The notes under the pieces are model-generated. The model was not told the DNA's origin. It saw nothing but the letters and a program-made list of their open reading frames with translations, and made no database searches. Below are positions 3,787 through 64,000 of a stretch of DNA of 64,000 bases, piece after piece (position 1 is the stretch's first letter; every line of letters begins with the position of its first letter). The position numbers and the translations under genes were made by a program. The DNA comes from Spirochaetia bacterium (GTDB lineage Bacteria; Spirochaetota; Spirochaetia; UBA9216): contig CAXXYH010000004.1 in NCBI GenBank assembly GCA_963677925.2, positions 1,472,001-1,536,000 of the forward strand, in the 5' to 3' direction.

Positions 3787-4824
3787 CTAAATTATAGCAG
3801 AAAAGGGGAACAAAATCACCCCCTCAAGCGATGAAGAATTAAGTATAAGCATGATAAGGCGGTCTATTCCCAGAGCCACTCCGGAGCAGTCTGGAAAGCC
3901 TTTTTTAAAGATTTCACACCATGTTTCATCAGCCTTAAGTGATACCAGTGCAGCTTCCTTCTCCCCGTTTTCTTTTCTGAAAAAATCAACAGCACGCTCA
4001 TAGTCAGTCTCTTCAGAGTAGCAGTTTGCAAGCTCAACACCGCCTGCATAAAGTTCCCACCTCTGCAGGCGTCCCGGGACCCGGGAGGGTTTTGCAAGTG
4101 TCGGGATCCCTGAAGGGTAGTCATAAAGAACAAGCGGTCTTTCTGAATCAAGATTTGGCTCTACAGAATGAACAAATATCAGGTTGAATAACTCTTCCCA
4201 GGTATCAGAGGCGCTGCAGCTCAGGCCGAGTCCGTCTGCCGCCTTAATCATGGCAGCCTTTTCTTCAGCTTCACTCATTCTGTCTGTACAGAAATCACTG
4301 ATATCAAAAGCTGCATGTTTTTTAAAGGCTTCAGTCATTGAAATTCTATTGAAGGGAGGGCGGAGCCATTCTGATTGTTTTCCAGTCTCAGGCCACTGCT
4401 CCTGCACAAAATCAAGAAGCCTCGAAAAAAGCTTCTCGGTGATCCGTATAGAATCTTCGGCATCTGCTTCCATAGTATAGTATTCGAGCATTGAGAACTC
4501 CGGGTTGTGTATGCGGCCAATCTGTTCGCTGTTTCTGAAACTCTTTGAAATATTGAAGATATCGCCGAATCCATCGGCTATCAGCTGTTTCAGGTAGTAC
4601 TCCGGCGATGGCAGCAGGTACATATCCTTTGATACTCCGTAGGGGTTCCGGTATTCTGTTTTAAAAAGTTCAATCGGTCCTTCGGGTATCACCGAAGGGG
4701 CCATCAGGGGCACATCGGCATCAAGGTAGCCTGCCTCAGTGAAGAAATTTCTGATAGCTGTAATGATCTGTGAACGTCGTCTGAGAAGCTCATATCTGCT
4801 GCTGTTTTTCTGTATTCCGGACAT
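3787..4824 (-). CDS. epmA: EF-P lysine aminoacylase (EpmA/GenX/PoxA)
   Basis: LysRS catalytic-domain paralogue without an anticodon domain: LLPSPEYYLK, FRNSEQIGRIHNPEFSMLEYY, ELYAGGVELANCYSE, SGVALGIDRL. Adjacent to efp. Confidence 0.95.
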   Translation of the reverse strand: MSGIQKNSSRYELLRRRSQIITAIRNFFTEAGYLDADVPLMAPSVIPEGPIELFKTEYRNPYGVSKDMYLLPSPEYYLKQLIADGFGDIFNISKSFRNSEQIGRIHNPEFSMLEYYTMEADAEDSIRITEKLFSRLLDFVQEQWPETGKQSEWLRPPFNRISMTEAFKKHAAFDISDFCTDRMSEAEEKAAMIKAADGLGLSCSASDTWEELFNLIFVHSVEPNLDSERPLVLYDYPSGIPTLAKPSRVPGRLQRWELYAGGVELANCYSEETDYERAVDFFRKENGEKEAALVSLKADETWCEIFKKGFPDCSGVALGIDRLIMLILNSSSLEGVILFPFSAII

Positions 4825-4941
4825 ATTCCAATTGTAATAAAATTCGCATGTCTGTGTATACTCATAATGTAATTCTAATTGACGGTGAATATTTCATTCT
4901 CTATCATGTATTAAATATTAAAACAGTCAGGAGTTTGCAAA

Positions 4942-5613
4942 ATGTTCGGGATTTATCTGTTTGCACTTATCTTCGGTTTCGGGGTTATTTTAATTGACAT
5001 GCTCGGTCTCATTGGTTCGGATCAGGGAAGCGGAGATGATTCTGGAGATATTTCAGCCGACAGCGGCGATGATATTGACGATATCAGTGCTGATGACGGC
5101 ATTGGATACAATGCCGGTGATGATACCGGGGAGGCAGGTAATGACTCCAGCGACCTGGACGCAAGCGATGATGGAGTACTTCTGCCTGATCTCCGCCGCG
5201 GAAGGTGGGGTTACAGTGCTCTGAATTATCTTAGATCCCTTGTATATTTCGCTCTCGGTTTCGGGGCTGTCGGGGTTTTCGGAAGTCTGACGGGGCATTC
5301 TTTTATAAGTACAATTCTCTGGAGTGCCGGAGCGGGAATCGTAATACTGATTATTGTAAAGTTTGTGATGCGGCTTCAGCGGAATGTACTTGATTCACAG
5401 GTGAAGGCCGGTGAGCTGATGCTGGCTCAGGCTGAAGTGTTGGTAACCATACCAAGGGGAAAGCTCGGCAGAATACGTGTAAAAAGCGGCGGCAGCTATC
5501 ATGACCTTTACGCACGCGGAAAGGATCCCGGAACAGTCTATCCGGCCGGGACTATAGTCTATGTTGTTGATTCTTCGGGTGATGATCTTATCGTTCATAC
5601 AGCGAAGGAATAA
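4942..5613 (+). CDS. NfeD-like (YuaF/YqiJ-type) membrane protein with C-terminal OB fold
   Basis: TM, Asp/Gly-rich loop, TMs, then AEVLVTIPRGKLGRIRV...LYARG...GTIVYVV. Precedes flotillins. SD CAGGAG. Confidence 0.8.
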   Translation: MFGIYLFALIFGFGVILIDMLGLIGSDQGSGDDSGDISADSGDDIDDISADDGIGYNAGDDTGEAGNDSSDLDASDDGVLLPDLRRGRWGYSALNYLRSLVYFALGFGAVGVFGSLTGHSFISTILWSAGAGIVILIIVKFVMRLQRNVLDSQVKAGELMLAQAEVLVTIPRGKLGRIRVKSGGSYHDLYARGKDPGTVYPAGTIVYVVDSSGDDLIVHTAKE

Positions 5614-5634
5614 AGAAGCTTTAGGAGGCAAAAA

Positions 5635-6951
5635 GTGGATATTATCACTGAATTACTTGGACAGGGGGGAGGTTCGATATTTCCGGCAATAGCGGCAATC
5701 ATCGTATTTTTTCTGCCCATCCTGATCCTGAAGGCATTTATCAAGGTGGCGCTGCCGCATATCCTGATTGTTGTTAACGGCCGCAAAAGCCGCCGTGATG
5801 GCAAGACCTACGGATTCTCCGTTGTCCGCGGAAGAACCACAGTGGTTCCCTATTTTCAGGAAGCAAGACAGCTTGATCTGGGAATCTACCCGATTAATGT
5901 ACGGGTTGAGGGTGTGAATTCCGCCAACGGAATTACCGTGGGTGCCGATGCAACTGCCTGCGTCTGTATCGATACTGATGACAGTGCAATGGTTTACACT
6001 GCTGTTGAAAAACTGCTGGGAAAAAGCCGTGAGGAAATTCAGGAGCAGATTCAGCGGACCCTGATAGGAAATTTCCGCGGTGCACTCAACAAGGCAACTC
6101 CCCAGGAGGCCATAGGCATGAAGAATGCGGATCCTGAATCAAGTGATACAGAAGGCTCAAGGGCTGAGTTTCGGGAGGAACTTGTGCGGGATATCGACAG
6201 CGACCTCTCAACCTTCGGAATGAAGGTCGTTTCAGTGTCCTTCCAGAATATCTGGGACACCTCCAACTATATAGCCAATCTTGCTCAGAAAACTCTTTCG
6301 TCAAAGCAGAAAGAGGTTGCCATCGAGGAAGCCCGTCTTAAAGCCGAGGCGGAACAGGCTGAATCTGACAGCAACAGAATCATCACCCTGGCCAGAAAAA
6401 AGGCCGAGGAAGCAATAATCGCTGCCAGACAGAAGGTTGAGCTTTACCGTAAAGAGAGTGAAAACCTGATAGTCGAGAAAAAGCTGCTTGCAGACAACGG
6501 CATAGAGAAGGCTCAGAATGAGGGCCAGACCCGTGTTCAGTCCGAGCATGTCGAGCTTAGGAAACTGCGGAACCAGACCGAGGTTGTTCTTGATGCCGAA
6601 GCCAAGAGTCAGGCTTCCGAAATCCTGGCAGAGGGAGAGAACGAGGCGATTCGTATAGTTGAGGGAACCAGAAACTCTATGCTGCGTCAGAAGACTGAAC
6701 TTCTGAAGAAGGCCGGAGATGTGGGAAACATGGTCCTTTTCATGAATCAGCTTCCCTTTCTTTATGAGGCCTACAAGCAGTCCGCAGGAAAGGCCGGTGT
6801 GAACAATTTTCTGGTTATGGATGAAAAAACAGGATTTTCTGGTGCAGTTAACCGCGGGCCTGCCGCCTTTGTTACCTTTCTGAAACACTTTCAGGAGGGA
6901 ATGGGAATCAATATACCTGAACTTATGGGTAAAAAGGAGGCCGCCAAATGA
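5635..6951 (+). CDS. Flotillin-like SPFH domain protein 1
   Basis: GTG start after AGGAGG. N-terminal TM, SPFH domain (VNSANGITVGADATACV, LIGNFRGAL, DLSTFGMKVVSVSFQNIWD) and an Ala/Glu coiled coil. Confidence 0.9.
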   Translation: MDIITELLGQGGGSIFPAIAAIIVFFLPILILKAFIKVALPHILIVVNGRKSRRDGKTYGFSVVRGRTTVVPYFQEARQLDLGIYPINVRVEGVNSANGITVGADATACVCIDTDDSAMVYTAVEKLLGKSREEIQEQIQRTLIGNFRGALNKATPQEAIGMKNADPESSDTEGSRAEFREELVRDIDSDLSTFGMKVVSVSFQNIWDTSNYIANLAQKTLSSKQKEVAIEEARLKAEAEQAESDSNRIITLARKKAEEAIIAARQKVELYRKESENLIVEKKLLADNGIEKAQNEGQTRVQSEHVELRKLRNQTEVVLDAEAKSQASEILAEGENEAIRIVEGTRNSMLRQKTELLKKAGDVGNMVLFMNQLPFLYEAYKQSAGKAGVNNFLVMDEKTGFSGAVNRGPAAFVTFLKHFQEGMGINIPELMGKKEAAK

Positions 6952-8237
6952 TGCTGTTTACCGTTACACTGATATTACTTATTCTTATAACTCTTTTTAT
7001 CCAGCTTATAACCCGGATGAAGATCATCGGGGGAAACAAACTTGGTATTATTGCAGGCAAGGGCGGCAAGGCCGGTTTTACCACGCTTTCGGGCGGACGG
7101 GCTTTTATAATACCGCTTTTTCACCGCTATACAACCGTAAATCTTATGCCTTATACAATAGACGTTGTTGTGAAGTCTTCCATCGCCGATGGGGTGGTTC
7201 CGCTGAACGTTAAGGCCACTGTAAGTTTTTCAATTGCATCATCCGCCCAGGGCAGGGATAAGGCTGTTACACGCCTGCTTTCAATGATAGATCATCCCGA
7301 TAACCTTAAAGAAGTTGCAAGCGATATCATCGAGGGACACCTCAGGGATGTAATTGCATCCATGACTCCTGAACAGGTTATGCAGGATAAGGATCAGCTT
7401 GTTTCAAACATGATAAACGTCTGTAAGACTGATCTTGAAAACATCGGACTTGAAATTGCAACAATGAATATTGCAGATGTCGATGATCACCGTCTTGAAG
7501 GTGTCGAGGACCCTGAACTCTACATTGCACTGCTTAAGCGTATTCAGACCGTGTATGCAGAATGCCAGGCCAGAATTGCAAAGGCTGAATCACAGGCAAA
7601 ATCGGTTGAAGAAGAGGAAAAGCGGCGTACTGAAATAGAAGTCAGGAAATACACCAATATGTATGAGAACATGGTTGCCGAGACCCGTGTTGCTGTTGCC
7701 GAGGAAGAGCAGCGGGGGCTGGTAGGTATTGAGGGTGTACAGAAAGCTGCGGATGCCGAGGTTGCCGGTCTTAAAACCAAGATCGAATCTGAAAAAGAGC
7801 GCGTGGTGATGCTCCGCAAGAAGCTTGAGGCAGAGGTTGTAACCCCGGCACAGGCTGAGAAGGAAAAGATGATTCTTGAGGCAAAAATCAAGTCTGCAGA
7901 AATAAGAGGTGAAGAACAGGCTGTTATAGATCAGCTTAAAGAGACTATAGATATTATCGCCTCACAGGGCGAAAAGGGTGCTACTGCCTATCTTATTGAG
8001 AATTTCAGCAAGCTTATTCAGCCTTTTGCCGAGACACTCACCCTTTTCAATGTTGATAATGTATCTGTTGTGACTGGAATGGAAGGCGGGCACCAGCCGA
8101 TAAGCGCCATTCATCCCCATGCTGTTGATATGACAAAAAATGAACTGATTAAAAACCTTATGGGAGACAGTCTTGGGGTATCTCCTGAGTTACTGACCGG
8201 TAAGAATTCCGTTTCTGTTTCTTCTATTAAAAAATAG
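6948..8237 (+). CDS. Flotillin-like SPFH domain protein 2
   Basis: 4-nt overlap with the previous gene; GGRAFIIP, IIEGHLRDVIASMTPE, DLENIGLEI, EAEVVTPAQAEK. Confidence 0.92.
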   Translation: MMLFTVTLILLILITLFIQLITRMKIIGGNKLGIIAGKGGKAGFTTLSGGRAFIIPLFHRYTTVNLMPYTIDVVVKSSIADGVVPLNVKATVSFSIASSAQGRDKAVTRLLSMIDHPDNLKEVASDIIEGHLRDVIASMTPEQVMQDKDQLVSNMINVCKTDLENIGLEIATMNIADVDDHRLEGVEDPELYIALLKRIQTVYAECQARIAKAESQAKSVEEEEKRRTEIEVRKYTNMYENMVAETRVAVAEEEQRGLVGIEGVQKAADAEVAGLKTKIESEKERVVMLRKKLEAEVVTPAQAEKEKMILEAKIKSAEIRGEEQAVIDQLKETIDIIASQGEKGATAYLIENFSKLIQPFAETLTLFNVDNVSVVTGMEGGHQPISAIHPHAVDMTKNELIKNLMGDSLGVSPELLTGKNSVSVSSIKK

Positions 8238-55727: not shown

Positions 55728-56669
55728 TCAGTTGTTTAAAACGGCGAGTGCTGTCTGTTCATCAATAATGAGATGGCTGAATATCCTTGATTTCAGTCCT
55801 GCAGAAACAGCCTTCGCTTTTTCAAGCCCGGCCACTATACAGAAAACCTTCGGTATTTTTTTCAGCTGTTCATGGCTGCAAACCATAAGCAGTTCTGTTG
55901 CATCGCCCGACAGAAAATTGCCGTCCTTATCGAAGGGCCAGCCGCAGATATCTCCTACTGCATTATTGAATACAGGGGATTTATCATCTTCGAGATCGAG
56001 GTATTTCCGCCATATTTCATCTGTAGTGTCTGAAGGCGGAACCCCGATTGATGTGACGGCTATATCGAGGGTATCCCAGTACTGGACAATCTTTTTCATC
56101 ATAGAGCTGTTTTTATACAGCTGCAGATCTTCAAGGCTTTCGGCCATTGCCGGTGCATGTATGAAGTTGGGAGTAGCATTCAGCTTTTCGGCAAAATCAC
56201 GAACCATTTCGTTTATCTGAAATCGTTTATGAGCACGGTTGCTCCCGCCGATCAGGGGTACTATGTTCAAATCGATATAGGTATTTTCATCATTGTAATA
56301 CTGGGTCATGAATTCATAGCAGGTACGGCCCCATGCAATACCGATGTTAAGCCCGGGAAGCAGCTCTTCGTTAAATATTTCTATTGCCCTTTCCGCGGCA
56401 AGTTTAAGCAGAAGGTTGGAATCTCTTATAGATGTGGGGACTACAAAACATCGCTCAAGACTGTATTTCTCAATAAGTCTTGAGGCAAGCGCCTCATTGT
56501 TTCCCAGAGGGTTTCTCAGTTTAATTTCAACTATTCCCGCTTCTCTTGCCTGGGTCAGAAACATCGAGATTGATGATCTGGAACGTTTTATGATTGAGGC
56601 AATTTCTTCCTGTTTTTTCCCTTCCAGATAATACATTCTGGCGACATTGTAAAGCAGCTGTTTATCCAC
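55728..56669 (-). CDS. SorC/DeoR-family sugar-binding transcriptional regulator
   Basis: VARMYYLEGKKQEEIA, AREAGIVEI, GIAWGRT, VPLIGG, AVGDICG, LIIDE. GTG start after GAGG. Confidence 0.94.
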   Translation of the reverse strand: MDKQLLYNVARMYYLEGKKQEEIASIIKRSRSSISMFLTQAREAGIVEIKLRNPLGNNEALASRLIEKYSLERCFVVPTSIRDSNLLLKLAAERAIEIFNEELLPGLNIGIAWGRTCYEFMTQYYNDENTYIDLNIVPLIGGSNRAHKRFQINEMVRDFAEKLNATPNFIHAPAMAESLEDLQLYKNSSMMKKIVQYWDTLDIAVTSIGVPPSDTTDEIWRKYLDLEDDKSPVFNNAVGDICGWPFDKDGNFLSGDATELLMVCSHEQLKKIPKVFCIVAGLEKAKAVSAGLKSRIFSHLIIDEQTALAVLNN

Positions 56670-56735
56670 TGAGCACCTCTGAAGATATGATTATACCAGT
56701 TTCGCATGAGAATCTTCAAGTTGATTCATATTATG

Positions 56736-58199
56736 CTATTTTACTGCTTCAAGATACTTTTTAAACAGCTGAAATTTCCGTTCATAAACGGCTGTATTTT
56801 CTTTAACCGGCTCAATAACCCTGGAGACTCTTACCATTTCTTTGGCTGCTTCTGCAAGATCCTGATAGGTGCCTGCGCCTACAGCGGCTCCCATTGATGC
56901 TCCAAGGGTTCCAAGTTCATCACCCTCGGTTATTTCTACCGGAAGTCCGAGGATATCTGCAAAGATCTGAACCCATTCCTTTGATTTCGAAGCGCCGCCG
57001 GATATTCTTATTTTTCTGGGTTTGTCCCGGTATTTAAGCAGCTTGTCGATGTGAAGTCTGTGTCCGAAAACAACACCTTCATATATTGCCCGAAGCATAT
57101 GGGCTCTTGTGTGCCATCCATAGAGACCTATAAAACTCGAAGACATTTCTTCTTTCAGGTTCGAGCCGAATAGATACGGGAAAAATATTAGATCTGATTC
57201 GTCAGGTTTTACTGATTCTACCAGTTTGTTTGCCGCGTCATAGTCGGAACTTTCTATTATATTGTTCATAAACCATTCAAGGTTTGAAGCTGATGTTGGA
57301 CTTGCCTCGGTTACAAGCCAGTATCCGGGGATGCCGTAGATGCTTGTCATGAACAGTTCTTCGGCTCCCACCGGAGAACTGCTTATAAATTCGTTTATAC
57401 TCCAGGTGCCTGCAATTACAGTGAGATCCTTATCATCGGTAAGACCTGTAGCAATAGCGCAGGCGTGAATATCAAAAAAGCCTCCCATAACCGGTGTTCC
57501 GGCCTTAAGCCCGGTTGCCGCAGCAGTGCTTTCTGAAACATAACCGCAGATATCTGTAGAGTTTTTAAGCGGCGGAAGCTTTGGAAGTATCTCAGGGATT
57601 CCGAAATCAGCAAGAAGGTCTTCATCATAGTTTCCGGTAAGTACATTCACCATGTTGGTTCCTGAGTAGTCGGTTATTTCTGCATAAACTTCGCCGGTCA
57701 GTTTGAAACGGATATAGTCTTTGCACATCAGTATCCAGCGGGTTTTTTCTATAATAGAGGGATTATTATCTTTGAACCAGTTTACAAGTGCAACAGGCTG
57801 AGCTGCCCATATTGACTGAAGGGTCTTCTTATTGATTTTTTCAAATGTACCGTCACTGTACCACTTGTCAACATATGATTTTGCTCTCATATCTGTTGAT
57901 ATGATACCGTTCATAACAGCATCGCCGTTTTCATCGATCAGGAACATTCCGTTTCCGTGACCGGTCTGTGATATTCCTGCAATTTCGTCAGCAGATATAT
58001 CCGCCTGTGAGAGAGCCTCTTTTATGGCCTGGACATTGGCGTTCCAGAATTCGTTCATATCCTTCTCAGTATGACCCGATTCCGGGTAGAGCATTTCCAC
58101 CTTTCTGCTGGCAATTGATATCTCATTGCCTTTTGAATCGTAAATGCCGACCTTGCAGACTGTTCCGCCGTTGTCTATTCCCATAAATAACTTTCTCAT
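56736..58199 (-). CDS. FGGY carbohydrate kinase, L-xylulokinase (LyxK/SgbK)-like
   Basis: GIDNGGTVCK, TGHGNG, STDMRA, CKDYIRFKLTG, FDIHAC, AGTWSINE, SPTSASNLEWF, SGGASKS. Confidence 0.9.
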   Translation of the reverse strand: MRKLFMGIDNGGTVCKVGIYDSKGNEISIASRKVEMLYPESGHTEKDMNEFWNANVQAIKEALSQADISADEIAGISQTGHGNGMFLIDENGDAVMNGIISTDMRAKSYVDKWYSDGTFEKINKKTLQSIWAAQPVALVNWFKDNNPSIIEKTRWILMCKDYIRFKLTGEVYAEITDYSGTNMVNVLTGNYDEDLLADFGIPEILPKLPPLKNSTDICGYVSESTAAATGLKAGTPVMGGFFDIHACAIATGLTDDKDLTVIAGTWSINEFISSSPVGAEELFMTSIYGIPGYWLVTEASPTSASNLEWFMNNIIESSDYDAANKLVESVKPDESDLIFFPYLFGSNLKEEMSSSFIGLYGWHTRAHMLRAIYEGVVFGHRLHIDKLLKYRDKPRKIRISGGASKSKEWVQIFADILGLPVEITEGDELGTLGASMGAAVGAGTYQDLAEAAKEMVRVSRVIEPVKENTAVYERKFQLFKKYLEAVK

Positions 58200-58210
58200 C
58201 AACACACCTC

Positions 58211-59044
58211 TTAAAACATATTCTCTATTACGAAATTCTTTGCGGCTTTAAGCTCTTCCATTGTGTCAGTGCTTTCATCAGCCCACATCTCAATGACTAT
58301 CATCCCTTTGAATTCTGCAGTCTTTACAGCTTCTGATGCACGTTGAAAGTCTACAGTACCCTTGCCGAAGGGGATCCTTCTGACTACGCCGGGATTTGTA
58401 TCTTTTATGTGCATGGCTGCTATGTGCCCCCTGGCAGAGGCCAGATCCAGAACTATGTCGTTGCCCATAGCTGAACTGTTGCCCAGATCGGGATAGGCCT
58501 GAAGATAGGGGGAGTCAAACATTTTTACATAGGTCATAACGCGTTCTATGGAGGGCATGAAAATTATGCCCATATTTTCAATAGCAAGGGTTACTCCGCG
58601 CTTCTCTGCATAGCGGAGTGATTTTTCAAGATTGGAAAGGTAGTTATCCTGCGATTGCTGAGTACTCTCCTCATCATATGCCGCGTCGTAGCCGGCAAGC
58701 TGCACAATCCTTATCCCTGTGTCGGATGCAAAGTCTATCGCATCGAACATCAGCTTCATGCCTGCGGTACGGATATCTTCATAGCAGCTTCCAATCGGAT
58801 AACGCCGATGCCCGCTCAGGCACATGGTCGGAACTTTCAGGCCTGAATTGAGCACTGCCTTTACGAAATCTTTCTTTTCACTCATAGACCAGTTCATTCT
58901 TGAAAGTCTGTAGTCGCTCTCATCCACTGATATTTCGACAAAGCTGAATCCTGCTTCACCGGCATACTCAAGAAGCTGCGGCCATTCCATTCCTTCGGGA
59001 ACAGCTTTCTCATATAGTCCGAACTGGTAATTATCAATATTCAT
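58211..59044 (-). CDS. ulaE: L-xylulose-5-phosphate 3-epimerase (UlaE/SgbU)
   Basis: GLYEKA, FVEISVDESD, MCLSGHRRYP, IVQLAGYD, YPDLGN, HIKDT, IEMW. Confidence 0.92.
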   Translation of the reverse strand: MNIDNYQFGLYEKAVPEGMEWPQLLEYAGEAGFSFVEISVDESDYRLSRMNWSMSEKKDFVKAVLNSGLKVPTMCLSGHRRYPIGSCYEDIRTAGMKLMFDAIDFASDTGIRIVQLAGYDAAYDEESTQQSQDNYLSNLEKSLRYAEKRGVTLAIENMGIIFMPSIERVMTYVKMFDSPYLQAYPDLGNSSAMGNDIVLDLASARGHIAAMHIKDTNPGVVRRIPFGKGTVDFQRASEAVKTAEFKGMIVIEMWADESTDTMEELKAAKNFVIENMF

Positions 59045-59049
59045 AACTG

Positions 59050-59691
59050 TTATTTTGACTGTCCGTAATCTTTAAAAACATTAACTGCTTCAACAAACTG
59101 TTCATCTGTAAGAAGAACCGGTTCGCCCATAGATTTTGCTACAAAGAGGGTTTTTACAGCATCCTCAAGATATACTGCGGCATAAAGAGCTTCCTTGATT
59201 GTTTTACCGACAGTAATTACGCCGTGGTTTTTGAGGATTACCGCATTTGAATCACCGATGTTGTCTACGGTTTCTTCACCCATAGCAAGGCTTGCCGCAG
59301 AGCTGAAGGGAGCTACATGAACTTCACCGGCACAAGCGTTCGCAAGTGTTGTTACGGCATTGGGGACCTTGTCGTATACCATGCCGACTGCTGTTGCATA
59401 TACCTGATGTGTGTGGATAATTGCGTTTACTCTTTCCATGTTCTTATAAACATGAAGGAGGGCAATTGAATCAACGGAGGGTCTTCTTGTTCCCTCTATT
59501 ATGTTTCCGTCTATATCCATAACTACAATATCATCTGCAACCATGGTGTCGTATGCCATGCCTGAAGGAGTTACAAGTATTTTGTTATCCGGCATTCTGC
59601 TGCTGACATTTCCCCCTGAAAGTGCAATGAGGTTGTATTCTTTCAGCGCCTGGCCTGTTTTAATGAGTTCATTTTTCTCTTTTTCGTACAT
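59050..59691 (-). CDS. Class II aldolase/epimerase, probably L-ribulose-5-phosphate 4-epimerase by context
   Basis: GGNVSSR, TPSG, RPSVD, HTH, NHG; the D after PS favours an AraD-type enzyme over FucA. Confidence 0.85.
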   Translation of the reverse strand: MYEKEKNELIKTGQALKEYNLIALSGGNVSSRMPDNKILVTPSGMAYDTMVADDIVVMDIDGNIIEGTRRPSVDSIALLHVYKNMERVNAIIHTHQVYATAVGMVYDKVPNAVTTLANACAGEVHVAPFSSAASLAMGEETVDNIGDSNAVILKNHGVITVGKTIKEALYAAVYLEDAVKTLFVAKSMGEPVLLTDEQFVEAVNVFKDYGQSK

Positions 59692-59788: not shown

Positions 59789-61621
59789 TCAGATGAAATG
59801 AGGGATCAGTATTGTAAATACACAGCCCGATTCAGGATGGTTTTCGACGGTAATTTTCCCGTTCATTTTATTAACTATTCCGTAAGATACCGACAGGCCT
59901 AGACCCAGGTTGTTTCCTGTTGCGTTTTTCTTTGAGAAAAACGGCAGGAAAATATTCTTTTTATCATCCTCGCTTATTCCAGGGCCGGTATCCCTGAATA
60001 CCATCTTCGCATAGCTGATTCCGCCTTCCGAAACTGATGTAAGTGATATTTCAAGTCTGCCTTCGCTGTTAACCGCTTCGAAACTGTTTTTGATGATATT
60101 GAGAATAATCTGCTTTACCTCTGTCCGGTTGCAGGCAACCAGAACTGCTGATTCGGGATCTGAATAATTTATTTCAATATTTCTTTTTTTTGCATTGTAG
60201 GAGATAAGCTGAATAATGTGACCAAGTACTTCGGATAGATCAATTACCTCGGTCTTTTCACTCGCACTGTCGCTGAATGATACCAGGTTGCTGACAATCT
60301 GTACGATGCTTTCAACCTCTTCCTCTATGTTATCAAGCACCTTGTCCAGCCGACCATCCGGAAGCATGGTCCTCAGATAGTCAATTTCATTGACTATTAT
60401 CTCAAGCGGGTTGTTGATTTCATGGGATACCCCGGCTGCAAGCAGTCCTACAGACCCCAGTTTTTCTGAAAAGTTAAGCTTCTCCCGGAGTGATTCCTGC
60501 TCGGTAATGTCTCCGACAATAATCATACTTCCTATGTACATAGTTCCGTCATAGATAGGATAGGTGGTTATTGTATTGATGGTCTCGTTTCCGCTGTTGT
60601 GTTTCAGCCGGACTGTGAAGGTTTCAAGCTGTCTTTTTTTAAGTGATTCAAAAACAGATTCAAGGATTTCCGGATTTCCGTTCAGGTTGAAAAACTCATC
60701 AATGCTCTGTCCGATAACAGGCTTATCACCGATTGAGAAGTAAGTCTTGGCATTGTTGTTAAGCAGTCTGAGTATCCGGTACTCATCAACTACAATCAGG
60801 TTCATGGGCAGGTTTTCAAGTATGGCCCTGTTGTATTTAAGCAGCTGGTAGAACTCCTGAGTGGTTGTGTCCAGACTGCTTTCCTGTACAACCTGAGTGT
60901 ATGCAAGCTTTATCAGATTGATCTTGTCGATATTTTTGATGGATTCGGTAGTAAGAATCCTTCCGTTTCTGATTACCGATACCCTGTCTGCAAAAGTGTA
61001 GACATCATCAATTCGATGAGTAATGAAAATAATGCTTGTGCCTTCCTCTTTTCTCTTTTTAAGTTCGGGAATGATTCTGTTAATATCGACAGCTGTCATC
61101 TTCTCAAAGGTTTCATCAAGTATCAGAAGCGCAGGGTCAGTGTGAAGGTGTTTGAGCAGTTCCAGCAGAACCTTCTCGGTATCCTTAAGAGTGCTCAGTC
61201 TTCGATGGCTGCGGAAATTGAAGCCGAGTGAGTCAAAAAAATCATCTGCCTTTCTGTTCAGTTCCTTGTTTGTGAAAAAACTCTTCATGAAGAAACGGGG
61301 ATCGTTGGCAAAAAGGTTCTGCGCGATTGAGAGCCTCTCATACTGCTCAATTTCCTGCATAACTATCTCTATTCCCTGCTCCTTTGCGGAACCCGGCTGA
61401 AAATATGCAGTCTGACTGGCATCCCAGAAAAGCTGTCCGGAATCAGGTTTTACATGGCCGGAAAGGATCATTGCCAGCGAAGATTTGCCCGCACCATGCT
61501 CTCCTATGACTGCATGAATTTCGCCCTTTCGGACGCTGAAATCAATTTTGCGCAGTACACTTGTCTGGCCGTAATTTAAACAGATTTTCTTTAGTTCTAT
61601 GATGTTCGTATCAGAGGACAT
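59789..61621 (-). CDS. Soluble histidine kinase with N-terminal sugar-ABC ATPase domain (NBD-PAS-HisKA-HATPase)
   Basis: GEHGAGKS, MQE, LLILDE, FITH, ADRVSVIRNG; PAS ILENLPMNLIVVD; AAGVSHEINNPL, LNIIKNSFEA, DTGPGI, FLPFFS, GLGLSVSYGIV; no TM. Confidence 0.93.
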   Translation of the reverse strand: MSSDTNIIELKKICLNYGQTSVLRKIDFSVRKGEIHAVIGEHGAGKSSLAMILSGHVKPDSGQLFWDASQTAYFQPGSAKEQGIEIVMQEIEQYERLSIAQNLFANDPRFFMKSFFTNKELNRKADDFFDSLGFNFRSHRRLSTLKDTEKVLLELLKHLHTDPALLILDETFEKMTAVDINRIIPELKKRKEEGTSIIFITHRIDDVYTFADRVSVIRNGRILTTESIKNIDKINLIKLAYTQVVQESSLDTTTQEFYQLLKYNRAILENLPMNLIVVDEYRILRLLNNNAKTYFSIGDKPVIGQSIDEFFNLNGNPEILESVFESLKKRQLETFTVRLKHNSGNETINTITTYPIYDGTMYIGSMIIVGDITEQESLREKLNFSEKLGSVGLLAAGVSHEINNPLEIIVNEIDYLRTMLPDGRLDKVLDNIEEEVESIVQIVSNLVSFSDSASEKTEVIDLSEVLGHIIQLISYNAKKRNIEINYSDPESAVLVACNRTEVKQIILNIIKNSFEAVNSEGRLEISLTSVSEGGISYAKMVFRDTGPGISEDDKKNIFLPFFSKKNATGNNLGLGLSVSYGIVNKMNGKITVENHPESGCVFTILIPHFI

Positions 61622-62918
61622 CTGTAATACCGTATTTAGTCATCTTGCTGTACAGGGTTGTCCTTGAAATACTCAGTTCCTCTGCCGCTTTCTTTTTATT
61701 ATATGAGTGTCTAATAAGAGTTTTGATTATAAGCTCTTTTTCAACTGCCATAACCGGAGTGAGTGTGGCTGTTTCATCAATAGTTTTTACCGGATGCGAC
61801 ATGGGCAGATCTTCAGGAAGCATGATCCCGTTTGAACAAATTGTTGCACCGTAATTGACGGCGGCTTTCAGCTCTCTCACATTTCCCGGCCAGTCATAAT
61901 TCAGAAGCAGTTCCATAGCCTGGTCGGAAATTGAAACACGGGGTTTTGCTTCCTCATCAGAATAACGGTTGAGAAAGTAATCGATCAGCAGGGGGATGTC
62001 TTCCTTCCGATCTCTAAGCGGCGGAATATAAACAGAGGCGCAGTTGAGTCTGTAATACAGGTCGCTTCTAAAAAGCTTGTCGGAAACAAGTTCTTCAAGA
62101 TTCCTGTTTGTAGCCGCTATGAAGCGGACGTTAATCTTTATGATTTCCTTACCGCCGAGTCGTCTTATTTCATTTTCCTGAATGGCCCGAAGGATTTTTG
62201 CCTGAATAGATAGGGGCATGTCCCCAAGTTCATCCAGGAAGAGAGAGCCGTTATCGGCCTGTTCAAAAACCCCCTTGAAGCAGTCATTTGCCCCGGTGTA
62301 TGAACCCTTCTCGTGTCCGAAGAGCTCGTTGTCCAGCAGTGATTCCGGAAAGGCGGCACAGTTTATCTTTACGAAGTTTTTTTCTTCTCTTGGAGAGTAT
62401 TTATGAATGAGGTCGGCAAGCAGTTCTTTTCCGGTGCCGCTTTCCCCGAGAATCAGTACCGAGAGATTTGACTGCGCAAGTTTCAGTGATTTCTTTATTA
62501 CATCAACCATCCTGCTGTTGCGTGTCTGTATCTCGGGAATCGCCGGAAGCTCCCTGGATTCTTCTCTCAAAAGTGCTTTTACCTGTTCCAGCAGGGTAGG
62601 GAATCTTACAGGCTTTTTGAGGTATTCATTAGCTCCAAGCTTAATTGCCTGTACTGCTGTTTCAACGGTTGCAAAACCGGTTATCATCAGAACAGGAAGA
62701 TCCGGCATCATCTTCTTGATCATAGTCAGAGCGTCAATTCCGCTTTCCTCTCCGATCTTGATATCAACAATCGCAAGATCGATTGGGCAGCACTGGAGAA
62801 TTCCCGATGCTGTGCTTATGTCGGGAGCTGTGGCGCATTCTATTCCTACAGAACCGAAATTACGTGAAAGGGTATCAAGAATCTTCTGGTTATCATCAAG
62901 TATTAAAATTCTGCTCAT
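61611..62918 (-). CDS. sigma54-dependent response regulator (NtrC family)
   Basis: REC (LDDN, VDIKIG, ITGF, KP); GESGTGKE, NCAA, ELFGHEKGSYTGA, FLDE, QAKILR, FRSDLYYRL, WPGNVREL; Fis HTH. Confidence 0.96.
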   Translation of the reverse strand: MSRILILDDNQKILDTLSRNFGSVGIECATAPDISTASGILQCCPIDLAIVDIKIGEESGIDALTMIKKMMPDLPVLMITGFATVETAVQAIKLGANEYLKKPVRFPTLLEQVKALLREESRELPAIPEIQTRNSRMVDVIKKSLKLAQSNLSVLILGESGTGKELLADLIHKYSPREEKNFVKINCAAFPESLLDNELFGHEKGSYTGANDCFKGVFEQADNGSLFLDELGDMPLSIQAKILRAIQENEIRRLGGKEIIKINVRFIAATNRNLEELVSDKLFRSDLYYRLNCASVYIPPLRDRKEDIPLLIDYFLNRYSDEEAKPRVSISDQAMELLLNYDWPGNVRELKAAVNYGATICSNGIMLPEDLPMSHPVKTIDETATLTPVMAVEKELIIKTLIRHSYNKKKAAEELSISRTTLYSKMTKYGITDVL

Positions 62919-63007
62919 CGGTGGAAATACTTTAACACGGTTTTTTATGCAGTCAAAGATAAAACTTTACCAAACAGGGAACTGAACATTTTCTGAACAT
63001 GTAATTC

Positions 63008-63021
63008 GGACAGATCTGTCC
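63008..63021. promoter_or_regulatory. Candidate enhancer (UAS) for the sigma54 activator
   Basis: Perfect palindrome GGACAGATCTGTCC about 100 bp upstream of the sigma54 promoter, flanked by TGAACA repeats. Confidence 0.5.
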
Positions 63022-63107
63022 AGATATTGAACACATTGTTTTTGACAGTTTTTTCCGGAATCTGTTAACTTATTCTGATTATGTGACTTAGCTGTTTTTC
63101 GGATTTT

Positions 63108-63123
63108 TGGCATGCTTACTGCA
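63108..63123 (+). promoter_or_regulatory. sigma54 (-24/-12) promoter of the sugar ABC operon
   Basis: TGGCATGCTTACTGCA with GG-N10-GC. Confidence 0.8.
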
Positions 63124-63134
63124 TGTATAGATTT

Positions 63135-63146
63135 TGACAAATGTCA
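63135..63146. promoter_or_regulatory. Operator at the predicted +1 of the sugar ABC operon
   Basis: TGACAAATGTCA, the same motif as at 59760. Confidence 0.6.
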
Positions 63147-63178
63147 TAAAATAATTCAATCACAAAAGGAGAGAGATT

Positions 63179-64000
63179 ATGAAGACTAGTAAAGTTCTTG
63201 CTCTTGTACTTGCTGTACTGACAGTGTTCGCACTGCTGGGTTTCAGCGGCTGTGCAAAAGAAGAGGCAGCAGCCGCACCTGCAGCTGCTGATACAGAAGA
63301 GGTTAGTTCACCTTTTATCGGCGACCCCAGCGAAACATATTATATGTGTGTTATGGTGTCAGGTGTAGAATACTGGTTCCCTGTTTATGAAATGATGAAG
63401 CAGGCCGGACAGCAGCTTGGTGTTGATACTGTTTATACAGGAACTCCTGAATACGACGTTAACAAGCAGCTTGCTGTATTTGAGCAGATTCTTGCTAAAA
63501 AACCTGCCGGTATCCTTCTTCACCCGATGAATCCGGATGCATTCATTGAACCAATCAACAGAGCCGCAGAAATGGGAATTCCTGTTGTTACATTTGCTGC
63601 TGACTCACCCAATTCAAAGCGTGTTTCCTACATTACTTCAGATAACACAAGAGAAGGTAGTTTTGCTGCCGACACAATCGCTAAGGATATGGGAGAAAAA
63701 GGTGAAGTTGCCGTTCTTGAAAATCCGGGACAGGATAACCACGACAAGCGTGTTAAGGCATTTATCGAAAGAATTGAAACTGCATATCCAAACATGAAAG
63801 TTGTTGCCAGAGCTGCTACAAACCAGGATCCCAACAAGGCATACCAGGCTCTTATGACAATGGCACAGGCTCATCCTAACCTCGGCGGTGTTTTCATGCC
63901 GGAAGCCAGCTCGGGAATGGGTGCTGCACAGGCTGCCAAAGAACTCGGAACAGGCATCAGGGTAATGTGTGTTGACGTTAATGCAAAGGTTCTTGATATG
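63179..64000 (+). CDS. Sugar ABC transporter substrate-binding lipoprotein (RbsB-like), runs off the right edge
   Basis: Not in the ORF track. Manual translation: MKTSKVLALVLAVLTVFALLGFSG|CAKEE...VEYWFPVY...KKPAGILLHP...GIPVVTFAADSPNSKRVSYITSDN. SD AAGGAG. Confidence 0.93.
   Translation, partial: MKTSKVLALVLAVLTVFALLGFSGCAKEEAAAAPAAADTEEVSSPFIGDPSETYYMCVMVSGVEYWFPVYEMMKQAGQQLGVDTVYTGTPEYDVNKQLAVFEQILAKKPAGILLHPMNPDAFIEPINRAAEMGIPVVTFAADSPNSKRVSYITSDNTREGSFAADTIAKDMGEKGEVAVLENPGQDNHDKRVKAFIERIETAYPNMKVVARAATNQDPNKAYQALMTMAQAHPNLGGVFMPEASSGMGAAQAAKELGTGIRVMCVDVNAKVLDM

Follow-up and report, generated by a model that had tools for sequence, protein, structure and literature searches.

To our knowledge, transporters that double as sensors do so either as separate proteins or as permease fusions. 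In MalK-MalT and PstB-PhoU-PhoR, the conformational state of an importer nucleotide-binding domain (NBD) provides the transport-activity signal for gene regulation, and the receiver in the Pho system is a PAS-containing kinase. CbrA joins a transporter component, a membrane permease domain, to a histidine kinase, and the histidine kinase KdpD carries a P-loop-type nucleotide-binding domain at its N-terminus. Bce modules pair a kinase with a transporter of the resistance exporter type, two distinct proteins that come together in the membrane, and their regulator is OmpR-like. The kinase of the BceRS-BceAB module from Bacillus subtilis has no sensor domain of its own and reads the ATP-binding cassette (ABC) transporter, and the two-component system controls the operon of this same transporter (PMC4513084, PMC10314905); KdpD likewise controls a transporter operon (PMC11018627). 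Here we analyze a histidine kinase gene whose product begins with the ATPase half of a sugar transporter. It lies in a stretch of 64,000 nucleotides, henceforth termed the window, from a Spirochaetia bacterium (assembly GCA_963677925.2, contig CAXXYH010000004.1, positions 1,472,001 to 1,536,000).

The transporter ATPase half built into this kinase has long been kept in several phyla, in loci that also carry sugar importers of the CUT2 type. A first-pass annotation, made from the nucleotide sequence alone, had noted no known characterized example. This impression holds: neither the full-text literature searched, to which subscription journals do not belong, nor a term search of the review PMC6978683 yielded a description of an NBD-fused kinase. 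The family apparently represents a new variant of transporter-coupled two-component signalling that is widespread and unstudied. We tentatively read it, with slightly less than even confidence, as a two-component system dedicated to a CUT2 importer, in which the fused NBD would engage this importer in a broad sense.

Architecture of the fusion kinase

The kinase gene and the parts of its product are as follows:

59789..61621, minus strand: gene of a soluble NBD-PAS-HisKA-HATPase_c kinase (Pfam); one uninterrupted open reading frame (ORF) of 610 aa; AlphaFold2 model with a mean pLDDT of 80.1
60893..61621, minus strand: ABC NBD, residues 1-243, resembling the first half (N1) of a CUT2 ATPase
60494..60865, minus strand: PAS domain with N-cap helix, residues 253-376 (Pfam PAS_9, PAS_4, PAS_10 and PAS)
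59789..60493, minus strand: DHp domain (H400) and catalytic ATP-binding (CA) domain, residues 377-610, with the stop codon (Pfam HisKA and HATPase_c)

Pfam places ABC_tran (PF00005) at residues 23-172 (1.7e-21; 77.7 bits against a cut-off of 25; profile positions 1-136 of 137), PAS_9 and PAS_4 over cut-off at residues 266-376, HisKA at 392-452 (38.6 bits) and HATPase_c at 499-607 (72.8 bits), the last two likewise above cut-off. Among NCBIfam models, residues 5-262 match the first halves of sugar ATPases that contain two NBDs, i.e., LsrA (9-257 of 510), YtfR (2-248 of 492), AraG, AlsA, RbsA and MglA, while residues 254-608 match AtoS (3.7e-59). All of these scores stay well under the equivalog cut-offs (146.6 bits for the best CUT2 model against 586-850), and the kinase thus belongs to none of these families. 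Its core contains the H box HEINNPL at residue 400, N512, a G1 box at 544-548 and a G2 box at 573-575, which together with the HisKA and HATPase_c matches place it in the HisKA class of histidine kinases. Every one of the 165 family sequences retains H400, N512, D544, G546, G548, G573 and G575; this set comprises the window kinase, members derived from the loci described below and representatives of 560-700 aa, assembled with no motif filter. As Kyte-Doolittle means over 19 residues peak at 1.12 and stay below 1.6 throughout, no transmembrane (TM) helix is found in the kinase, which is therefore predicted to be soluble. Pfam and motif reading hence bear out what had been annotated at first: a 610-aa ORF with no TM helix, in which an NBD with a degenerate signature (LKDTEK) and D-loop (ETFEKM) precedes a PAS domain and a complete NtrB-type kinase.

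In the AlphaFold2 model, computed from a 45-sequence alignment, residues 1-240 of the NBD are well folded (block means of 69-94 pLDDT, mostly above 80), and the PAS-DHp-CA kinase forms the third part after the NBD and a linker. Foldseek matches of the NBD half are LptB, MJ1267 and other transporter NBDs, with TM-scores of 0.75-0.87 normalized to the target, and those of the kinase half are led by PAS/LOV kinases. The best solved relative is ThkA (3a0r, 5.1e-29), and no solved chain among the PDB and Foldseek matches spans both halves.

Spread of the family and its conserved neighbourhood

An assembly chimera, which the first-pass annotation had considered, would be confined to this one assembly. 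The 120 best database matches are, however, all 598-634 aa long, align over 98-100% of the query and contain PF00005, PF00512 and PF02518. A profile of 100 positions across the NBD/PAS junction, searched against 1.84 billion cluster representatives, retrieves 2179 of them at E<=0.001, 182 from several phyla at E<=1e-10 and 51 at E<=1e-30. Full-length matches occur in 13 of 401 sampled genomes of the window's phylum (10 of 153 genera), some of which contain two or three. Scanning species genomes for the junction pattern gave 61 loci, assigned by record title to spirochaetes (46), KSB3 (12; Moduliflexus, Vecturithrix and UASB14/270) and, with one locus each, Smithellaceae, Opitutae and an unclassified bacterium; another full-length relative is found in a Planctomycetota record (L007). 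As the loci stem mostly from metagenome bins, isolated odd phyla should be treated cautiously. We nevertheless reject both a chimera and a decaying, vestigial domain with no role, to which we attach a negligible probability, because the same architecture, length and junction recur in many independent assemblies and several phyla. In the source databases, members are annotated merely as 'ATP-binding cassette domain-containing protein' or 'histidine kinase'.

The following features adjoin the kinase gene, those past the window end being given in coordinates of locus L002:

61611..62918, minus strand: NtrC-type sigma-54-dependent response regulator, 435 aa (Pfam Response_reg, Sigma54_activat, AAA_lid_14 and HTH_8), overlapping the kinase ORF by 11 nt
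63008..63021, no strand assigned: GGACAGA/TCTGTCC, a perfect palindrome with two 7-nt arms, some 100 nt upstream of the -24/-12 element; candidate binding site of the regulator
63108..63123, plus strand: sigma-54 -24/-12 promoter-like element TGGCATGCTTACTGCA, facing the gene of the sugar-binding protein, with GG and GC in register
63179..64000, plus strand: 5' part of the gene of a lipoprotein sugar-binding protein (SBP), which opens the CUT2 operon; the full gene (L002 4180-5256) encodes 358 aa
L002 5324-6832, past the window end, divergent from the kinase: CUT2 ATPase, 502 aa, with two ABC_tran domains
L002 6844-7833, past the window end, divergent from the kinase: CUT2 permease, BPD_transp_2, 329 aa

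The regulator, whose 11-nt overlap with the kinase had been noticed at first sight and is evident from the ORFs, combines the receiver, sigma-54 AAA+ domain, Fis-type helix-turn-helix and GAFTGA-type loop of the NtrC family. Its sigma-54 contact loop reads GSYTGA rather than GAFTGA (residues about 200-209); among the 64 regulators paired with fusion kinases, this loop is GAYTGA in 24, GAFTGA in 17 and GSYTGA in 7, with 16 falling outside the search pattern. The SBP starts with MKTSKVLALVLAVLTVFALLGFSGC, a lipoprotein-type signal, and belongs to Peripla_BP_4 (Pfam). Judged by gene content, the SBP, the two-NBD ATPase and the permease, for which no PDB relative was found at E<=0.001, make up a complete CUT2 importer operon.

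Linkage was counted by tblastn around 64 full-length fusion kinases, 63 of which have enough upstream sequence to score the regulator and 51 the at least 7 kb upstream used for the ATPase; L131 and L141 (the same contig stretches as L003 and L006) and L101 (junction identical to that of the window) were left out of this set. In 62 of 63 loci, the gene immediately upstream of the kinase, in the same orientation, encodes an NtrC-type regulator. The gene of a two-NBD ATPase lies divergently within 8 kb in 46 of 51 loci and somewhere in the locus in 49, the transporter of L147, L160 and L024 being located elsewhere than in the divergent 8-kb position. Counts based on ORFs agree (regulator 63 of 68, ATPase 52 of 59); their exceptions are mostly artefacts of the ORF caller (L003, L143, L145, L147; four antisense ORFs with no Pfam family), and the tblastn counts supersede them. 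The association with CUT2 operons and sigma-54 activators, proposed as a check in the first-pass annotation, is thus conserved. Twenty first divergent neighbours had remained unrecognized by the seed search, 17 of which were run on Pfam (three ORFs of 98-124 aa were left out). Eight of these matched Peripla_BP_4 and eight Peripla_BP_1, tallies that may overlap; two were Bmp-type binding proteins, and the others were sugar or quinate-type dehydrogenases and one URO-D.

The promoter-like element is separated by 55 nt from the SBP start codon at 63179. Taken alone, TGGCATGCTTACTGCA is at chance level, with 28 matches in the window against 31 expected. Across the family, regulator and transporter genes are separated by 55 intergenic regions, 48 of which are at least 40 nt long, the other 7 being too short. 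With at most 2 mismatches allowed and GG and GC obligatory, a sigma-54 site is found on the transporter strand in 33 of these 48 regions and on the regulator strand in 0 of 48, while 200 mononucleotide shuffles gave a mean of 0.34 regions and a maximum of 2. The genome also encodes RpoN (rpoN, 191.7 bits). The initial claim of a pair divergent from the sigma-54 promoter of a sugar-binding lipoprotein hence gains from the conservation of this site, and the view that the kinase-regulator pair would control the importer operon is well supported. Two AACATTTTCTGAACATGT-like direct repeats near the palindrome at 63008-63021 are further candidate binding sites of the regulator.

Median identity to the window proteins amounts to 40% for the NBD, 36.5% for the PAS domain, 45% for the kinase core, 47% for the regulator, 41% for the ATPase, 33% for the permease and 26% for the SBP, of which a homologue is detectable in only 25 of the 64 compared loci. 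The sensor module thus stays alike while the binding proteins beside it diverge, which fits, and leads us to favour, a substrate-independent signal.

Some genomes contain two kinase/regulator pairs side by side, each with a CUT2 operon of its own (L024 4950-11779, L126 and L145); the two pairs of L024 are arranged back to back. Paralogous pairs of this type would be good material for a study of specificity.

The fused NBD and the signal it may carry

The NBD of the window kinase retains an A-loop tyrosine (Y17, at least 90% conserved in family alignment A1), Walker A (GEHGAGKS, 40-47), the Q-loop residue Q89, Walker B (LLILDE, 165-170) and the H-switch (H202 in ITH, 200-202). An LSGGQ signature and a SALD-type D-loop are absent; their positions read LKDTEK (145-150) and ETFEKM in the window kinase, and LNLSDR and ALEKLS in the family consensus. 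In the unfiltered set of 165 sequences, K46 is retained in 160, D169 in 162, E170 in 149, Q89 in 132 and H202 in 123. The position of the signature serine holds S in 39 of 165, glycine is not among the five most frequent residues at the first glycine position, and a canonical signature occurs nowhere in the set. When the two halves of 60 neighbouring ATPases are aligned with the fused NBDs, the comparison below results, in which Walker A conservation is overstated, as the alignment was filtered for this motif (165 of 182 sequences):

Walker A: CUT2 first half, GENGAGKST; second half, GAGRT, lysine absent; fused NBD, GEHGAGKSS
Q-loop Q: first half, present; second half, absent; fused NBD, present (TQQ)
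Walker B: first half, DE; second half, DE; fused NBD, LLILDE
H-switch: first half, present; second half, absent; fused NBD, ITHR
Signature: first half, weak LSIAQQQ; second half, canonical LSGGNQQ; fused NBD, LNLSDRV
After Walker B: first half, PTSALT; second half, PTRGID; fused NBD, ALEKLS

As the first-pass annotation had stated for CUT2 ATPases, the functional Walker A belongs to the first half, in which Q and H likewise follow the consensus. The canonical signature belongs to the second half, where it reaches 3.50 bits and the D-loop 3.99 bits. By its motifs the fused NBD sides with the first half, except that its signature has degenerated even further and the segment after Walker B differs, the proline and the D-loop being lost there. 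CUT2 ATPases are defined by two tandem NBDs in a chain of about 500 aa and by a score over the NCBIfam equivalog cut-off; in the fusion, one NBD is followed by PAS and kinase domains.

In an unrooted FastTree phylogeny, 49 of 49 fused NBDs taken from the loci group in a single split (support 1.0). The 60 second halves likewise group together (support 1.0); the first halves do not form a single split. Judged by this tree, the fused NBDs are one old clade. The window NBD shares 29.8% identity with the first half of its cognate ATPase and 33.6% with the best other CUT2 ATPase of the genome. A recent duplication of the neighbouring ATPase, tried as the origin of the fused NBD, was rejected on both grounds. 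The initial idea that a kinase has taken the place of the second NBD thus holds in that the fused NBD resembles a first half; it fails for the neighbouring ATPase, which is not the origin and which remains complete as the ATPase of the importer.

In ABC proteins, ATP is sandwiched at the interface of two NBDs, one contributing Walker A and its partner the signature. The fused NBD is predicted still to bind ATP, and a canonical hydrolytic NBD dimer within the kinase dimer is unlikely, because both of its NBDs would lack the signature. The Q-loop region, which in ABC transporters faces the coupling helix of the membrane domain, is conserved at 2.54 bits in fused NBDs versus 2.68 bits in true first halves, and the information profile across Walker A, Q-loop and helical subdomain follows that of the first halves. 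The C-terminal helix at residues 228-243, with the consensus NIDKINLIKLAYTQ, stands at 3.40 bits compared to 2.22 in first and 1.90 in second halves. Both the overall conservation of the NBD, which equals that of working transporter halves (mean 2.47 versus 2.44 bits), and this junction helix, the most conserved element specific to the family, speak against the vestigial domain considered above. The family would rather show the fate of an NBD whose motor role has ended, with the ATP-binding side and Q-loop kept and the signature and D-loop lost.

We infer, as the favoured reading, that the kinase engages the importer. An importer-derived signal is favoured because the ATP-binding side is constrained, the membrane-facing segment is not relaxed, and the NBD is both CUT2-like and CUT2-linked. 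In this model, the soluble kinase would phosphorylate the translationally coupled NtrC-type regulator, which in its phosphorylated form would activate the sigma-54 promoter of the divergent SBP-ATPase-permease operon. Given a kinase that lacks TM helices and an SBP of the lipoprotein type, extracellular sugar would be seen only by the importer. The fused NBD would plug the kinase into the cognate importer, either at the NBD-docking site under the permease or by pairing with the signature-bearing second half of the importer ATPase, and the state of the importer, i.e., docked to sugar-loaded SBP and cycling versus idle, would alter the position or closure of the NBD. From there the signal may pass through the conserved C-terminal helix to the PAS dimer and the kinase core, making the importer the extracellular receptor of a kinase devoid of membrane and periplasmic parts. 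The C-termini of NBDs point away from the membrane, as the C-terminal regulatory domains of MalK and MetN illustrate, and docking should therefore be sterically compatible with a PAS-kinase at this end. If the NBD engages the importer, the fusion would provide a compact and portable way for any SBP-dependent sugar importer to report its substrate to a transcriptional switch with no dedicated ligand pocket, as well as a tractable soluble system for the conversion of NBD movement into a signal.

A more specific form of this model, which we regard as doubtful, has the kinase dimer, with its two signature-less NBDs, replace the ATPase under some of the permease dimers to yield a non-transporting receptor complex, in which docking of sugar-loaded SBP on the outer face would close both fused NBDs on the inner face in an ATP-dependent manner and thereby switch the kinase on. 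Were it true, an ABC importer scaffold would serve as transmembrane receptor for a soluble kinase, independent of substrate chemistry. Complex predictions for the NBD (residues 1-250) with two permease copies scored 0.50, 0.53 and 0.54 against 0.36 for a single control and are counted neither way.

Several observations weigh against engagement of the importer. The importer has its own complete two-NBD ATPase, so that docking to the permease would mean competition. Besides the single NBD-kinase fusion, the genome yields 27 further CUT2-ATPase-like matches (open frames of 500-550 aa that align with the H-switch portion of the junction profile); with about 27 other CUT2 ATPase genes present and a fused NBD that is not specially similar to the cognate one, specificity is left unexplained. 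A purely non-hydrolysing dock would need none of E170, Q89 and H202, which are kept in 75-90% of the family. The linker between NBD and PAS domain (residues 243-252, about 10 residues) has pLDDT values below 50 in the AlphaFold2 model and is not a rigid helix. Two of the 51 loci, L150 and L153, have no ATPase gene within 10 kb, and the PAS domain could be the actual sensor.

Such a sensor is the core of a different account, which we consider unlikely: the PAS domain would perceive a cytoplasmic sugar or sugar phosphate after basal transport, and the NBD, out of contact with the importer, would be an ATP gate that either reports the ATP/ADP energy state or, through ATP-dependent dimerization, sets kinase versus phosphatase activity. 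The window protein and most of the listed relatives contain a PAS domain, and at 36.5% this domain has the lowest identity of the three parts of the kinase, which leaves room for varied ligands. That the ATP-binding residues are the best-kept part of the NBD would suit a gate, yet the kinase already has an ATP-binding catalytic domain, and two signature-less copies are poor candidates for ATP-driven dimerization. The flexible linker would likewise suit a self-contained module and the two loci with no nearby importer gene a sensor of this kind, but the constant likeness to CUT2 first halves and the CUT2 linkage in 46-49 of 51 loci are left unexplained, and conservation of the membrane-facing Q-loop segment equals that seen in transporter halves that still work.

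Engagement of the importer, our preferred reading, also has a sub-variant in which the partner is the ATPase instead of the permease. In the manner of MalK-MalT, the kinase would sense an idle transporter, its ATP-loaded NBD pairing with the signature-bearing second half of the cognate ATPase while this half is free in the resting importer, which would keep the kinase in one state until transport cycles release it. We rate this as improbable. Only the CUT2 second half combines the canonical LSGGNQQ and D-loop with the loss of the Walker A lysine, Q and H, and the fused NBD holds exactly the complementary set of motifs; on the other hand, the D-loop and the proline after Walker B, which are parts of the NBD-NBD interface, are lost from it. 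Retention of E and H in 75-90% of the family would be sensible if the partner supplied the signature, although the two ATPase halves lie on one polypeptide and face each other, so that access of a third NBD appears sterically doubtful.

Flanking genes and comparison with known systems

Four genes follow downstream of the kinase on the same, minus strand (55728-59691). The products are a class II aldolase/epimerase, whose best match, to L-ribulose-5-P 4-epimerase, stays under the cut-off; an L-ribulose-5-phosphate 3-epimerase, which at 294.9 bits exceeds the TIGR00542 cut-off of 272; an FGGY pentulose-type kinase, whose best match, to xylulokinase, is likewise under the cut-off; and a regulator of the SorC/DeoR type. 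Their resemblance to a ketopentose pathway of the L-xylulose type hints at the substrate of the importer. The close relatives L102 and L103 carry other genes downstream of the kinase. On the other side, past the window end, the importer operon is directly followed by a trp operon (L002 8094-14526) for anthranilate synthase I, a fused GATase/phosphoribosyltransferase, a fused IGPS/PRAI, TrpB and TrpA, beyond which lie a second SorC regulator and another CUT2 ATPase. In L150, the region upstream of the regulator (4641-7115) encodes an 824-aa fusion of CoA-disulfide-reductase-like, rhodanese, TusA and DsrE domains.

Among the known systems, Bce modules are closest in logic, as the kinase would sense through a transporter, and the resemblance is one of logic only. 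Instead of an intramembrane-sensing kinase and a BceAB-type transporter, the locus encodes a kinase with no TM helix and a BPD_transp_2 importer: the soluble kinase incorporates a transporter ATPase half, the transporter takes up sugar in an SBP-dependent manner, and the regulator acts with sigma-54. With the CUT2 ATPases RbsA, MglA, AraG, XylG, LsrA and YtfR, the fused NBD shares the first-half Walker A, Q, Walker B with its glutamate, H and a weak signature, but it is a single NBD with neither an LSGGQ-type signature nor the proline and D-loop after Walker B, and it falls into a separate clade.

The C-terminal part of the fusion resembles the cytoplasmic PAS-DHp-CA kinases AtoS, ThkA (3a0r), NtrB and YF1 (4gcz), none of which has an ABC NBD; NtrB and AtoS are, like the fusion kinase, paired with a regulator of the NtrC family. 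MalK-MalT and PstB-PhoU-PhoR consist of separate polypeptides with a working NBD, whereas here a dedicated extra NBD is contained within the kinase. KdpD differs in that its nucleotide-binding domain is of another P-loop fold family and is not homologous to a subunit of the regulated transporter, and in that it is membrane-anchored and paired with an OmpR-type regulator. In CbrA, finally, it is the membrane permease domain of a transporter that is joined to the kinase, while in the family described here the fused part is the cytoplasmic ATPase half.

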